Below, piece after piece: positions 54,334 through 58,183 of a DNA stretch of 64,000 bases. The first letter of the stretch is position 1. Every line of letters begins with the position of its first letter. The stretch is from NCBI GenBank assembly GCA_965221905.1, contig OZ244922.1:800001-864000 (forward strand), given 5' to 3'. Made by a program: the position numbers and the translations under genes. The notes below the pieces were generated by a model. It had not been told where the DNA came from. It saw only the letters and a program-made list of their open reading frames with translations, and did not search any database. Origin of the DNA: Chloroflexota bacterium. Lineage in GTDB: Bacteria; Chloroflexota; UBA11872; VXOZ01.

Positions 54334-54807
54334 ATGATTCGATTTAGCCATACAGTGATTCCTTATCCCGCGCGCGCGGAGAGCATCGTTCTGCTCGCTC
54401 TGTTGGCCGCGCTCATTCTCATCGCCTGTGGGGCGCGCGGGGAACAGACCGGCGGACTCGACGTGACCGTTGTTTCTGCGTCACCCGACCCGGCAACGGT
54501 GGGCGATGCCGTGATCACCCTGGAAATTCGCGATGCGGACGGTAATCCGGTTGAAGGCGCAACCATCGAGGTGGAAGGCACCATGACCCACGCAGGCATG
54601 AAGCCGGTCATCGTAGAGACTAAGTCCCTCGGTGAGGGCAAGTACGCTACCAAGGACTTCAAATTCACAATGGGCGGCGACTGGGTCCTTATCGTGCGTG
54701 CCACGCTCGCCGACGGCAGCACGGCTGCGCAGCAGGTTGATCTGAAGGGTGTGCAGGGCGAGATGAAGATGGAAATGAAGTCCGACAAAGCCAAGGAAGG
54801 CAACTAG
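54334..54807 (+). CDS. YtkA/FixH-like lipoprotein
   Basis: LIAC lipobox, Ig-like 'EGTMTHAGM...FTMGGDW', Met-rich C-terminus. Confidence 0.8.
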   Translation: MIRFSHTVIPYPARAESIVLLALLAALILIACGARGEQTGGLDVTVVSASPDPATVGDAVITLEIRDADGNPVEGATIEVEGTMTHAGMKPVIVETKSLGEGKYATKDFKFTMGGDWVLIVRATLADGSTAAQQVDLKGVQGEMKMEMKSDKAKEGN

Positions 54808-55455
54808 CCGTGGCCGTGCTGCGGACCCCACAGAAAGGGCAGCGGGATCTCCTCAACCTACCCGTTATCGGACGCTTCCTGCGCTGGAAGCATGCCCGCA
54901 CGTCCATGCAGGCAGTGCTCCTGGCAGTGTCGGCCCTGATCCTCTATGATGGTTTCTGGGGTCCGCAGCTTGCGTCAAAGAACCTCGCGGGCGTGCTCCC
55001 GTGGGTGCATTGGCGCGGCTTCGTGGTGCTGGCTCTGCTGGTAGCAGGCAACCTCTTCTGTATGGCGTGCCCGTTCATGCTGCCGCGCCGCTTAGCCAAG
55101 AAGCTCCTGCCCGCCAATCGCCTGGCCCAAGTTCATCCGCAGCAAGTGGCTGGCAATCGGCGTGCTTTTGGTCTTCTTCTGGGCGTACGAGGCCTTCGAC
55201 CTCTGGGCGAGCCCGTGGCTTACCGCCTGGGTGGTGCTTACGTACTTTGTCGCCGCCTTTGCGATAGACGGCATCTTCCAAGGCGCAGCTTTCTGCAAGT
55301 ACGTCTGTCACATCGGACAGTTCCACTTCGTCCATAGCATGGTGTCGCCGCTGGAGGTCAAGGTGCGCCAGCCTGCCATCTGCGGCACGTGCACAACGAA
55401 AGACTGCATCAAAGGGCGCTACAGCCAAAAGCCGGAGCAAAGTATGCTCCGTCAT

Positions 55456-56490
55456 GGTGGATTCACATTTCAAGTGCAACGTTTGTTTGAGGAATACTTC
55501 TGTTGGGGTTTGATAGTCAAGGCACTTGCGTGGCGTGTGATTGTAGGCTTGGATAAGTTGCGCAAAGCGCTCTGCAGACATCTCCGCCAGGTCGGTCTTG
55601 CGCGGCAGCACCCGCCGCATGCGTCCGATGGCGTTCTCAATGCCTCCTTGTCTGCCACGGCGCGTGGGTGTCGCAGAAGAAGGTCTGGATGCCCAAGTCA
55701 TGGAGATGGTAATGACGCGCGAACTCGGTGCCGTTGTCGAAGGTGACGGTCTGTCGCCACGCTTCAGGCAAGACCGCGAGCAGATCGTGCATGGCAGCGG
55801 CGATGGGCTCTGCCGCCTTGCCGGGCTGGCGCGCAGCGATGAGCAAGCGCGAGTGGCGCTCGTGCAGGGCGAGCACCGCGTGGCCGCCTCTGCCAAAGAG
55901 CATCAGGTCAGCCTCCCAGTGGCCGGGGGTTTGGCGGTCGGCGGCCGCCTGGGGACGTTCCGCCAGTGGACGGCGCTTGGCAATGAAGGAGGCCGGACTG
56001 CGCCCACTGCGCCGATGGGGCCGCCGTTGCGCCTTGCCTCGCGGCAGGTACTGCCGCCAACTGTAGTCCTTGGTGCGCGCCACCTGTCCGTATATGAAAC
56101 GATAGATGGTCTCGTGGGAGATGACCGGTGCTCCCGCTTTCTGCGCCATGTGTCCCGCCACCTGCTCCGGCGACCAGCCGCATTGCAAGTACTCCAGCAC
56201 GGTCTTGCGCAACGCAGCATCCCGTTCCAGCTTGCCGCCAACCCAGCGCCGCGCCCACGCCTGTTCATCGGCATACCCCGCTTGGTAGCCCTGCGTACGA
56301 GACCCATTGCGTTTCACCTCCCGCATAATGGTCGATGGCGCGCGATCCAGAGCTGCAGCAATTTGCCGGTACGAGTGCCCCGCGGTGTGAAGTCGGGCCA
56401 GTTCACACCGCTCTTCAATGGAAAGTTGACTGTACTGTGTTCCCATGGCAACACCTTAGCATGGTGTTGCACTTCGTTTGTGAGTCTAGC
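55456..56490 (-). mobile_element. IS30-family insertion sequence (1035 bp); transposase from 56446, frameshifted near 55651
   Basis: HTH 'YSQLSIEER...IAAALDRAPSTIMREVKRN'; DDE 'GHWEADL', 'TFDNGTEF', 'GGIEN'. 25-bp imperfect IRs GGTGGATTCACATTTCAAGTGCAAC / GCTAGACTCACAAACGAAGTGCAAC (18/25 match). Confidence 0.93.
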
Positions 56491-56639
56491 GAATCCAGGT
56501 ATCCAGGAGCAACTTCCCCAAACGCCCGAGCCGCCTCAGCCCCGTCAATCCTGGGTAAAGAAACAAATGCGTGACTTCCTCTATCCGATGGACTCGGGCC
56601 GGGCTGCGGGTAATCACCCTCACCCTAACCCTCTCCCTC

Positions 56640-56903
56640 TGTATAGACCGGGCACATGGGTTACACCAAGAGACATAGGGTTTTTGTAGAAGAGAATGGC
56701 CATGCCATGGAAGATTAATACAGTCAATGTCGTTGTGCAAATAGGTTGTGGCCCAGGCACAAGCTAACGTGTTGAACACGAGCGCATTGTGTCGTCTTGA
56801 ACGTCTTCTTCTCGGACCAACCTATAACATCCATAGATCTCAGGGAGCAAATTGTGTAACCCATGTCCCCGAACAACTGTTACCTATGTCCCCAGTCTGT
56901 ACA
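56640..56903. mobile_element. 264-bp IS481-type MITE with 5-bp target duplication CCCTC
   Basis: Ends TGTATAGACCGGGCACATGGGTTACA / (rc) TGTACAGACTGGGGACATAGGTAACA with repeated GACATRGGT boxes. CCCTC at 56635-56639 and 56904-56908. Confidence 0.88.
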
Positions 56904-56990
56904 CCCTCAAGGGAGAGGGGATCCCTACACTTCAGAACAGGGCAGTGCTAAGGTCTCCGCAGGTGAGAACTCAGGCGATGAGCCTGCCCT

Positions 56991-57090
56991 CCGTCATTCC
57001 GGCGAAAGCCGGAATCCAGACGACATGGACAAGCCCTTCCAAGCGCCAGAACGACGTCTGCTCCGTCATTCCCGCGAAAGTGGGAATCCA
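56991..57090 (+). repeat. Two type A REP palindromes read in-frame inside the CDS (LRHSGESRNP, LRHSRESGNP)
   Basis: CCGTCATTCCGGCGAAAGCCGGAATCCA at 56991 and CCGTCATTCCCGCGAAAGTGGGAATCCA at 57063, with stem-preserving substitutions. Confidence 0.9.
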
Positions 57091-58081
57091 TCTTCCAGGG
57101 AGCAGCAACGCCAAGCGGCTATGTCCGCCGAATCCCAGTCTCCTCCTCAAACGGGGCGAGAAGCGTCTGTCCCAACCGGACTTCAACTCGTGCAATCCGG
57201 CTGCGAGCTGTGGCTCTTCCAAGAACGCAAGGTCGGCAACATGGACTGCACGTTCTGCCTGGACTGCATCCAGGCGTGCCCCTACGACAACGTCGGCATC
57301 CAGTTACGCGCGCCCACCAGTGAGTTTCGCCGCTTGCAGGAGTGGCACTCCGGCGTGGGCACGCTGGTAAAACGCACTGACATAGCGGCGCTGGTGATTG
57401 TGCTCGTATTCGCGGCGTTCGTAAACGCCTTTGGGATGGTGGCGCCGGTCTACGTCCTGGAACAATGGCTGGCCGCGCTGCTCGGCATCCGCAGTGAGCC
57501 AATGGTGCTTGGCGTGGTCTTTCTTGTGGGGCTGATAGCGTTGCCGTTCGTGCTTGTTACCCTTGCCGCTTGGTCGAGCCGTGCGCTTGTCGGCGGAACC
57601 GAGCCGCTGGGCTCGACCGTAACGCGCTACAGTTTCGCCCTCGTTCCCATTGGCTTTGGGATGTGGCTTGCGCACTACGGCTTTCACTTGTTTATCGGCG
57701 CCCTAACCGCTGTTCCCGTGATGCAAAGTTTCTTGGCTGACTTTGGATTGCCAATTCTGGGCGATCCACGCTGGGAGCTGGCTGCCGTCGTGCCCGACTC
57801 CTGGCTGGTGCCGCTGGAACTCCTGCTGCTGGAGCTCGGCATGCTCGTCTCACTGACCATCGGCTACCGCATTGCGAAAGAACAGCAAGGCGCAGTGTCG
57901 AAGGCCATACGCGCTCTCTTGCCGTGGGCAGTTCTAATCGTCGCTCTGTTCTTTACCGGAGCCTGGCTGATGACGCAACCGATGGAAATGCGGGGTACGA
58001 TTCTCGGATAGATCGCGCTAAGCCCAAACGCAATAGTACGTTCGTGCCTTAGGAGGCGACCTTTGAGTAACTCGGTCTTTG

Positions 58082-58183
58082 CGGCGAAAGCCGGAAATCA
58101 GGGGGAGGCGGGAAGTGTACAGAAACTTGCCGTGAAGTCCTTTTCACCCCCATCCCGACCTTCCCCCGTCAAGGGGGAAGGGG
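58082..58183 (+). repeat. Second copy of the A+B composite REP element
   Basis: Homologous to 2133-2230. Confidence 0.8.

Follow-up and report, generated by a model that had tools for sequence, protein, structure and literature searches.

REP sequences in a coding loop of a polyferredoxin-like gene from a Chloroflexota bacterium, and the two REP-homing elements found in it

Palindromic repeats that have become part of coding sequence, and mobile elements that choose palindromic repeats as targets, have both been described before (the two surveys used here are cited for their passages on these points). In the survey of repetitive extragenic palindromic (REP) sequences by Di Nocera et al. (2013, PMC3733652), intragenic REPs were reported from several species, often as dimers or clusters, and repair genes, uvrA among them, hold many of these; intragenic uvrA REPs were found in Thioalkalivibrio and Opitutus terrae, and clusters encode 43-82 amino acids (aa) in Thauera and Rickettsia conorii. 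The class CGTC-1 of that survey has a CGTC tag, an 8-bp stem that starts from A-T pairs, a loop of 4 nucleotides (nt) and a CCA tail; in R. conorii it was equated with RPE-6, one of the Rickettsia palindromic elements (RPEs), and CGTC repeats were not tied to transposase genes. The work of Ogata and Claverie on the RPEs is cited there as references 13 and 14. Insertion sequences (ISs) that target REPs were surveyed by Tobes and Pareja (2006, PMC1525189), who list IS1397, ISKpn1, IS621, ISPpu9/10, ISPa11, ISPsy8 and ISRm19/22 from the families IS3, IS110, IS4, IS256 and IS5; for their type 1 elements the association with REPs ranges from 4/4 to 10/10, and within the passages used here IS30 appears only in a remark on DNA binding. 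Here, we describe a 64,000-nt stretch of a Chloroflexota genome (assembly GCA_965221905.1, contig OZ244922.1, positions 800,001 to 864,000; called the window below, and all positions are counted within it unless a genome handle is given) in which a polyferredoxin-like gene at 54810-58011 on the forward strand carries REPs of two families in its reading frame and is interrupted twice, by an IS30-family IS and by a miniature inverted-repeat transposable element (MITE).

We consider it highly probable that this locus is a REP-bearing loop of the polyferredoxin-like gene which was struck by two REP-homing transposons. In this explanation, the short turn between the third and fourth cysteines of the first cysteine motif would have grown in this genus to a loop of 56-164 aa, copies of the families that we call REP-A and REP-B1 having entered it in hydrophilic frames. 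Loop length would then have shifted by REP gain, by duplication of REP-containing blocks and by REP-to-REP deletion. Finally, a coding REP-A would have served as the target of the IS30-family element, with duplication of GAA, and the centre of a coding REP-B1 as the target of the MITE, with duplication of 5 bp. The features on which the argument relies are as follows.

54810-55120, forward strand: 5' part of the polyferredoxin-like gene, with a GTG start, in the first frame; it ends at a 2-nt deletion
55309-55311, forward strand: proline-to-histidine change, CCC to CAC, giving CKYVCH; CCC in the relative G005, CKYVCP in the orthologues
55381-55416, forward strand: first cysteine motif CGTCTTKDCIKG (CxxCxxxxC), read from the translation and kept in homologues
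55417-55455, forward strand: loop piece 1, closing with the REP-A1 left tag (ctccgtcat, 55447-55455); the arm lacks 17 nt
55456-56490, reverse strand: IS30-family IS of 1035 bp with 25-nt inverted repeats, the sole copy in the genome
56491-56639, forward strand: loop piece 2, made up of the REP-A1 right arm (gaatcca, 56491-56497), a spacer and the REP-B1 left half
56615-56639, forward strand: left half of REP-B1, including the target copy CCCTC at 56635-56639
56640-56903, no strand assigned: MITE of 264 bp with the ends TGTATAGAC.../...GTCTGTACA and no long open reading frame (ORF)
56904-57198, forward strand: loop piece 3, with the CCCTC copy at 56904-56908, the right half of REP-B1, spacers, REP-A2, REP-A3 and the tail to GCELWLF
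56992-57017 and 57064-57089, forward strand: cores of REP-A2 and REP-A3, from the REP-A scan, the read-through translation and the alignment of orthologue loops
57199-58011, forward strand: 3' part of the polyferredoxin-like gene, within an ORF at 56863-58011 that reaches the stop codon

The initial annotation of this DNA had proposed that the loop is open once the IS is removed, a 14-nt REP core is restored and the MITE is taken out together with one CCCTC copy. We repeated this with a script, in which the IS (55456-56490) and the MITE with one CCCTC (56640-56908) were excised and 14 N were placed at the gap, and obtained the same result: between CIKG and GCELWLF there are 39+14+149+290 = 492 nt, or 164 codons with 0 stops, while the other two forward frames contain 1 and 6 stops. 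The reading frames of the palindromes are hydrophilic, REP-A being read as LRHSGESRNP and REP-B1 as HPHPNPLPQGRG, and the hits of both types share one frame and one orientation. The starts of REP-A2 and REP-A3 lie 72 nt (24 codons) apart. In the D1/D2 repeat family comparison, the 57-nt units beginning at these two starts are 74% alike, and the 31 nt that end at REP-A1 and at REP-A3 are 77% alike. This spacing, together with the 74-77% similarity of the flanks, indicates duplication of REP-containing blocks.

Both repeat families are real dispersed families of this genome. REP-A (consensus tCCGTCATTCCgGCGAAAGCgGGAATCCATCtTc) has 156 genomic copies at up to 4/26 mismatches and consists of a CGTC tag, an 8-bp stem ATTCCGGC/GCCGGAAT, a GAAA loop and a CCA tail. 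REP-B1, a C-rich palindrome, has 13 further copies at up to 8/38 mismatches, and a sister subfamily with a stem unlike that of B1, REP-B2, has 17; in a shuffled control of 1 Mb, 0 copies of REP-A and 0 of REP-B1 were found. The palindromes between genes at 2125-2230 and 58082-58183 had been assigned to the same families as those of the loop; for type B this assignment needs correcting, as the copies at 2193-2231 and about 58145-58183 are B2 and not B1. When compared with the text description of CGTC-1, REP-A agrees in every described trait (tag, 8-bp stem starting with A-T, 4-nt loop and CCA tail), and it is likewise a dispersed multi-copy family that does not flank a tyrosine transposase gene: the sole clear Y1 transposase gene of the genome (48 bits) has no REP-A or REP-B within 1.5 kb. 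A REP-associated tyrosine transposase (RAYT) was considered as the mobiliser of REP-A and rejected, the only clear Y1 gene being flanked by a GTAG-type REP instead. This gene (IS200/IS605-type, G000:C1:3327899-3328216, L145) has GTAGCGCGGGGGCTTGTCCCCCGC-type palindromes repeated on both sides; these form a third, GTAG-tagged REP family, with the Y1 gene as its likely RAYT. We also observed four neighbouring REP-A pairs 43-44 nt apart in the whole genome, which suggests REP doublets. In frames of at least 340 aa, 17 of 21 REP-A positions have hydrophilic readings (RHSxESxNP in 10 and MDSRFRGNDG-like in 7), and the reading DGFPLARERR at 613871 is counted among the other four.

Relatives with a REP-containing loop in an uninterrupted gene, which the initial annotation had named as something to look for, are the rule in this genus. 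The genus set comprises 17 genomes, the window genome (G000) included. Of the 16 others, 15 contain an orthologue, and the genome without a match is 69% complete; in 14 of the 15 orthologues a single open frame runs through both cysteine motifs. The loops of these intact genes measure 56, 65, 85 (three times), 101, 109, 115 (twice), 125, 133, 146, 151 and 164 aa. We aligned the 14 loops with the window read-through. REP-A-type peptides (LRHSGESRNP and decayed forms) are present in all 15, each of which has a REP-A module ahead of the conserved tail, and the REP-B peptide HPHP(N/G/D)PLPQGRG is present in 7, among them that of the window, with its start at offset 99-105 in 5 of the 7. Scanning the DNA of the 15 loops placed all REP-A and REP-B matches in a single frame and a single orientation. 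The lengths differ even between sister species (146 vs 115, 109 vs 85, 151 vs 133), and only G007 and G008 are equal. The loop of G005 has three REP-A copies, each 72 nt apart. In the 85-aa loops an A1-like start runs directly into A2-like sequence, so that they look like A1-A2 fusions of the kind that a REP-to-REP deletion would leave. In a contig from run X10, positions 55428 and 56991 are joined through 20 other letters, a junction that looks like the short-loop allele of a related strain, G005-like and without REP-A1, REP-B, IS and MITE. Joints in run contigs that have short sides at REP positions (e.g., 56637 to 57063) were set aside as cross-matches between repeats, sponge-metagenome runs with a small share were left out of the comparison, and none of the runs recorded as RNA contained the stretch.

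This variation could have been produced with fewer arrivals than the initial annotation supposed. It is a distinct possibility, to which we give somewhat less than even weight, that one REP-A and one REP-B entered in the ancestor of the genus and that everything else followed by tandem duplication and REP-to-REP deletion. The 72-nt REP-A spacing, which G005 shares with the A2-A3 pair of the window, fits this account, as do the 74% and 77% similarities of units and flanks, the REP-A module common to all 15 loops, the similar REP-B offset in five of the seven loops that have one, the 85-aa loops that resemble A1-A2 fusions and the repeated multi-REP blocks in UvrA (described below). However, G005 has an extra REP-A after A3 that is not found in its clade mate G000, the loops of G009 and G011 have differing layouts, and two unrelated REP families call for at least two entries. 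The tree of the genus allows both accounts, and the choice between them alters the tempo and not the nature of the REP-bearing loop. Thus, from the description of the loop as a repeatedly colonised hotspot of several families, the presence of two REP families stands, whereas "repeatedly" cannot be told apart from a single insertion followed by duplication and deletion.

The same site was then compared in the wider protein family. An HMMER scan with the shortest-loop orthologue as query gave 1998 relatives, of which the best 150 were examined, and both cysteine motifs could be located in 103. The spacing from the third cysteine to the next is 8 residues in 65 of these 103 homologues, with a median of 8; it is at least 30 in 12 of them, and the only value above 55 belongs to a same-genus protein with REP peptides. 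The family norm is CxxCxxxxC-x8-C, as against 60-168 residues at this site in the present genus, and an equally long loop free of REPs, which the initial annotation had named as the finding that would speak against a REP-driven expansion, was not encountered in these homologues. REP peptides occur among the best 150 of the 1998 relatives only in P0001 and P0016; with 73% and 87% identity to the query, both are regarded as proteins of the same genus. The repeats thus lie in-frame in open ORFs and are not found in homologues from outside the genus, as is typical of RPE-like inserts. The cysteine that follows the loop, C261, is invariant in a family alignment of 25 sequences. Because this cysteine is invariant and normally stands 8 residues from the third one, the two parts of the gene have to belong to one polypeptide.

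This bears on the suggestion that the REP stretch does not code at all and that two genes are separated by an intergenic REP cluster which happens to be open. REPs are mostly intergenic according to Di Nocera et al. (PMC3733652), and HMMER aligns most homologues in two stretches, with the loop skipped. However, one frame is kept across loops of such varied length (56-164 aa) in 14 of 15 orthologues, stops interrupt both other forward frames of the window loop, and the position of C261, 8 residues after the third cysteine in 65 of 103 homologues, ties both sides together. We therefore regard a non-coding stretch as very improbable. As to the structure of the loop, an AlphaFold model of the orthologue with the shortest loop (from G010) has a mean predicted local distance difference test (pLDDT) score of 85.9 and a predicted template modelling (pTM) score of 0.86. 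The 3' domain is modelled with confidence, and loop residues 220-223 and 225-248 fall below a pLDDT of 50. Because of this very low confidence in the middle of the loop, it is probably a disordered excursion; the insert would then lie in a non-structured part of the protein, as predicted by this model and as is the case for RPE-like elements.

REPs within reading frames are not confined to the polyferredoxin-like gene. A census of REP-A copies in long open frames, in line with the genome scan proposed in the initial annotation, brought out further decorated proteins, namely UvrA, a HerA-like ATPase and an Eco57I-like methylase. In the window genome, frames that measure at least 150 aa from stop to stop take in 54 of the 156 REP-A copies. 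We do not use this figure as a count of genes, many of these frames being spurious or upstream of the true start; GMP synthase was likewise dropped, its REP being at aa 48 and its first domain starting at aa 69. Since many frame hits are doubtful in this way, we rely only on the three cases above, which have domains on both sides of the REP. The uvrA gene of the window genome (G000:C1:3489989-3493177, L058) has a 95-aa in-frame stretch with REP-A peptides in both orientations, formed by two REPs between the UvrA_inter and DNA-binding domains. In all 17 genomes UvrA is encoded in one open frame (811-1494 aa, the shortest being cut by a contig end), and the stretch between two conserved motifs varies from 68 to 354 aa. 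It contains REP-A peptides in both orientations (RHSGESRNP, MDSRFRGNDG) in 16 of the 17, REP-B-like peptides in G011, and multi-REP blocks repeated two or three times. The HerA-like ATPase (G000:C1:1686342-1688315, L053) has one REP within its DUF87 match, and the methylase (G000:C1:2071551-2075171, L054) has a REP-A peptide within its domain match; the peptides at these two loci read RHSRESGNP or RHSGESRNP. Judged from these sequences, the presence of REPs in coding regions is genus-wide.

In several respects these repeats resemble the RPEs. They are small palindromes placed in-frame in open genes, they occur in several genes per genome and at sites where homologues have short turns, and RPE-6 belongs to the CGTC-1 class that REP-A fits (PMC3733652). 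In contrast to the Rickettsia case, the host is a Chloroflexota bacterium with a free-living-sized genome of 3.5 Mb and not a reduced intracellular alphaproteobacterium; the loops contain several REPs of two families and reach 56-164 aa in the polyferredoxin-like protein and 68-354 aa in UvrA; and the coding REPs were struck by REP-homing transposons. The UvrA insert is of the same kind as the intragenic REPs in PMC3733652. Unlike the examples in the passages used here, it is longer and hypervariable across a genus, and the other host is an Fe-S membrane protein with the insert inside a cysteine motif.

The first of the two interrupting elements belongs to the IS30 family. Members of this family are recognised by terminal inverted repeats and a target duplication of 2-3 bp, and here we find inverted ends and a duplication of GAA. 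By reading, the ends match at 17 of 25 inverted-repeat positions (the computed pair I4 covers 21 nt at 76%), and comparison with the copy in the relative G004 gives the same boundaries. The transposase ORF (56446-55637, reverse strand) scores 193.4 bits against NF033563, for which the cut-off is 80, and contains HTH_38 and rve domains. A frameshift near 55650 leaves a product of 269 aa, as compared with 330 aa in 23 of the 25 other flanked copies, and the contig from run X10 is without 1 nt at 55650, the extra base of the window IS. The window copy is accordingly predicted to be dead.

The IS was detected in 14 of the 17 genomes, that of the window included. Our census of its sites covers each full-length copy that came with flanking sequence, 26 in all, spread over 13 genomes. 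For 23 of the 26 (12 genomes) the element sits in one canonical REP-A site in fixed orientation: on the left there is a full REP-A arm with the end ...GCGGGAA, on the right the sequence begins with GAATCC, the target without an insertion is ...GCGGGAATCC..., and the IS has duplicated GAA, which stands on both sides. Of the remaining three, one has the left REP flank only, one (that of the window) the right one only, and one neither. With 23 of 26 complete and 2 more partial associations, the element lies well above the type 1 threshold for REP-targeting ISs (more than 45%, at least 4 copies). The proposal that it targets REPs is thereby borne out, and from its insertion sites it can be called REP-homing. 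The restoration of 14 nt of REP core, on which the 164-codon loop relied, also agrees with the flanks of these 23 copies; the fill is legitimate because the canonical site predicts exactly this sequence. In the window, 17 nt are gone beside the left end of the IS, of which 14 belong to the REP and the other three are one GAA. As the lost 17 nt are exactly the remaining hairpin, loss by slippage is a reasonable inference, and the hairpin was probably lost in this manner after the IS had landed.

The 7-mer GAATCCA occurs both within the left end of the IS and as the REP arm and tail beside the insertion point. Because this heptamer is common to both, the transposase may find the REP as it would its own end and recognise it as such. 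E. coli IS30 prefers palindromic hot spots and its own inverted repeats, and a study by Nagy et al. from 2004, reference 24 of PMC1525189, is said to concern IS30's N-terminal DNA-binding domain. The element described here resembles E. coli IS30 in its transposase family, its length of about 1 kb, its 3-bp duplication and its palindromic target; it shares GAATCCA with that target, and a 7-nt remnant in G004, described below, would fit an insertion into an IS end. Unlike the target of E. coli IS30, that of the present element is a dispersed REP used in one orientation only. Two candidate loci, L046 (G002) and L039 (G010), gave open frames of 315 and 331 aa when the IS was removed in silico, with RH(A/S)RARGNPS at the site, and may be other genes struck via a coding REP.

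The second element, the MITE, is flanked by CCCTC at 56635-56639 and 56904-56908. The genome contains 4 copies, all centred in REP-B-like palindromes, with duplications of about 5 bp. A 1.27-kb IS at G000:919490-920754 (L143), with a 397-aa product that scores 275.7 bits against NF033577 (cut-off 224), has TGTA(C/T)AGAC termini in common with the MITE, by which the MITE is identified as a non-autonomous derivative of this IS481-family IS. The parent at L143 itself occupies the centre of a REP-B1, where CTCCC is duplicated; a second copy (G000:C1:154996-156283, L144) has no recognisable REP at its site. Taking the complete elements together (2 ISs and 4 MITEs), 5 of 6 lie in a REP-B1 centre with 5-bp duplications, as the view of the MITE as REP-targeting would have it, and one of the two solo ends adjoins a REP-B arm. 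With 5 of 6, this group too exceeds the type 1 threshold.

As with the elements surveyed by Tobes and Pareja (PMC1525189), the association with REPs is high (23 of 26 for the IS30-family element) and the position within the palindrome is fixed. The present elements differ from those in the passages of the survey used here in belonging to the IS30 and IS481 families, in being tied each to a different REP family, and in that one of them spawned a MITE of the same specificity. In a search of literature titles and abstracts, no REP-specific IS30- or IS481-family element was found, which does not prove absence from print.

Besides the two insertions, the gene contains two lesions that do not appear in the list of the initial annotation. 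At about 55120 a 2-nt deletion (cgcccctgg to cgcctgg, relative to the G005 orthologue) shifts the frame, and the ORFs 54810-55337 and 55162-55746 are accordingly in different frames. The second lesion is the change of proline to histidine at 55309-55311, in a CxxxCP motif whose C167 and P168 do not vary among the 25 aligned family sequences. With the IS, the MITE, the 2-nt deletion and this substitution, the gene is a pseudogene as far as its sequence tells. The closest clade consists of G000, G004 and G005, and in G005 the gene is intact.

An assembly artefact, in which the IS, the MITE or the frameshift would be errors made at repeats in a long-read metagenome, might be suspected, since the genome is a single-contig assembly, the relatives at this locus are metagenome-assembled and two frameshifts lie within 600 bp. 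However, runs X7 and X8 yielded independent contigs that do not differ from the window at the 55120 site or at any of the four element junctions: the 55120 deletion lies together with the left IS junction in records 17 and 25, the right IS and left MITE junctions in record 19, and the right MITE junction in records 22 and 31. Moreover, an IS with the same ends is found in 13 further genomes of the genus and three more copies of the MITE in this one. We consider such an artefact exceedingly improbable.

A weightier question is in which order the gene and its loop were damaged. The gene may have died first, by the 2-nt deletion or the proline-to-histidine change, so that the IS and the MITE landed in neutral DNA; we regard this order of events as possible, with our judgement leaning to the other side. 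It would agree with the presence of four lesions in one gene and with the decay of the IS itself (269 vs 330 aa, and 17 nt of flank gone). The absence of the 5' two thirds of the gene from G004, a member of the same clade, suggests that it is dispensable there. Furthermore, most REP targets are intergenic, and within flanks of 1.5 kb only 2 more of the 26 IS sites, the candidates L046 and L039, lie in frames of at least 300 aa. Against this order, the insertion appears old and the deletion recent. G004 has the same junction as the window gene (GTCTAGC followed directly by GAATCCA), and at this locus the window and G004 are 94.9% identical over the IS and 91.5-93.3% over the flanks, so that the divergence of the IS is close to that of the flanks, which fits an old and possibly shared insertion. 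The contigs from runs X10 and X1, which represent related strains, keep the extra CC at 55120; since these strains still carry the intact CC, the deletion is young. These points do not date the events. Thus, in the claim that the REP loop exposed the gene to transposons, the REP-homing character of both elements holds, while the insertions may have followed the death of the gene.

The arrangement in G004 (L017, G004:C1:3513000-3521000) is an observation in its own right, for which the upstream neighbour is needed.

54334-54807, forward strand: gene with a YtkA-like domain (PF13115, E 4.1e-15), upstream of the polyferredoxin-like gene

In G004, the closest relative, the same polyferredoxin-like gene holds the same IS in inverted position. 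Beyond the left end of the IS come 7 nt left over from the opposite IS end, and these abut GAATCCA. The equivalent of 54582-57083 is deleted, and with it the YtkA gene has lost its 3' part and the polyferredoxin-like gene its 5' two thirds. This looks like an IS-mediated rearrangement, possibly with an insertion into an IS end.

The window genome measures 3.52 Mb in a single contig with 58% G+C. The polyferredoxin-like protein consists of a membrane part at the N terminus, two cysteine motifs and, at the C terminus, a helical membrane domain; its gene's 3' part encodes the fourth cysteine of motif 1 (in GCELWLF), the second motif CTFCLDCIQACP (57247-57282) and the helical membrane domain, and is 79-98% identical to the orthologues in 15 congeners. 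The pieces of the gene gave Fer4 and NapH matches below threshold only when compared with Pfam and NCBIfam, and the intact G010 orthologue matched no Pfam family at E <=0.001. The N-terminal piece scored 26.2 bits (cut-off 213) and 21.1 bits (cut-off 234) in the NapH/MauN test with TIGR02163 and NF007013, and the resemblance to NapH is confined to the region of the cysteine motifs. A Foldseek search of the PDB with the orthologue model gave no match at E <=0.001. The labels NapH, FixG and CcoG were therefore dropped, and the protein is left outside these families because its profile matches are sub-threshold and the intact orthologue has no Pfam family. For the family as such no dedicated Pfam model exists. 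In many homologues, of 700-850 aa, the polyferredoxin-like part is preceded at the N terminus by a fused Caa3_CtaG domain (cytochrome oxidase assembly). We infer that the protein may have a role in copper or oxidase-assembly redox chemistry.

Several points weigh against a REP-bearing loop struck by REP-homing transposons, or narrow what can be claimed for it. Of the 164 loop residues, recognisable REP cores make up only about 48, with spacers as the remainder, and the 14-nt fill is deduced from other copies of the IS, the locus itself not showing it. Nor is expansion owed to REPs alone: some closer lineages have 16-55 aa at the site without REP peptides, and because of this the site seems to have been permissive, and partly expanded, before the REPs came. 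With 7 of 16 inner forks open in the backbone of the genus tree, independent REP gains cannot be counted. That the loop is translated is indicated indirectly, by the intactness of the 14 orthologues. Each element also has an exception to its targeting, as 1 of 26 copies of the IS30-family element and 1 of 6 elements of the IS481/MITE group lie outside REPs. Runs X7 and X8 may come from the source sample, in which case their agreement tests the assembly and not the biology; the gene may have been dead by the time the transposons landed; and the host protein stays below the NapH cut-off and has no structural relative by Foldseek, so that its function is conjectural.

Set against the earlier work, intragenic REPs, including those in uvrA (PMC3733652), and ISs that target REPs (PMC1525189) are known already. 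The lineage is new, as are the scale and variability of the REP-built loops. REP-homing elements from two families outside those of the 2006 survey, as given in the passages used here, each with its own REP family, are a further addition. The direct link between a coding REP and the insertion of a transposon in that very gene is new as well, with the reservation that the insertions may have followed gene death.

The genus offers a clean comparative example, beyond Rickettsia and the Proteobacteria, of palindromic repeats that become protein sequence and then reshape it. By carrying a REP, a gene becomes a target for REP-specific transposons, a consequence that we did not meet in the passages used from either survey (PMC3733652, PMC1525189). 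The IS30-family element and the IS481-family element with its MITE are added to the list of REP-homing elements, and the regularity of their sites makes them suitable for experiments on target recognition. For annotation, it follows that LRHSGESRNP, MDSRFRGNDG and HPHPNPLPQGRG peptides in these genomes mark REP-derived loops and not domains. More tentatively, and as a view we would not yet press, REPs could be a regular building material for fast-changing loops, held by selection to the hydrophilic frames and reshaped through REP-to-REP recombination, in proteins that are otherwise conserved, such as UvrA, the polyferredoxin-like protein and the HerA-like ATPase, the loops being predicted floppy in the one model made; each coding REP would at the same time be a transposon address able to switch off genes. 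If this is true, coding REPs would carry a previously undescribed cost, paid through REP-homing transposons.

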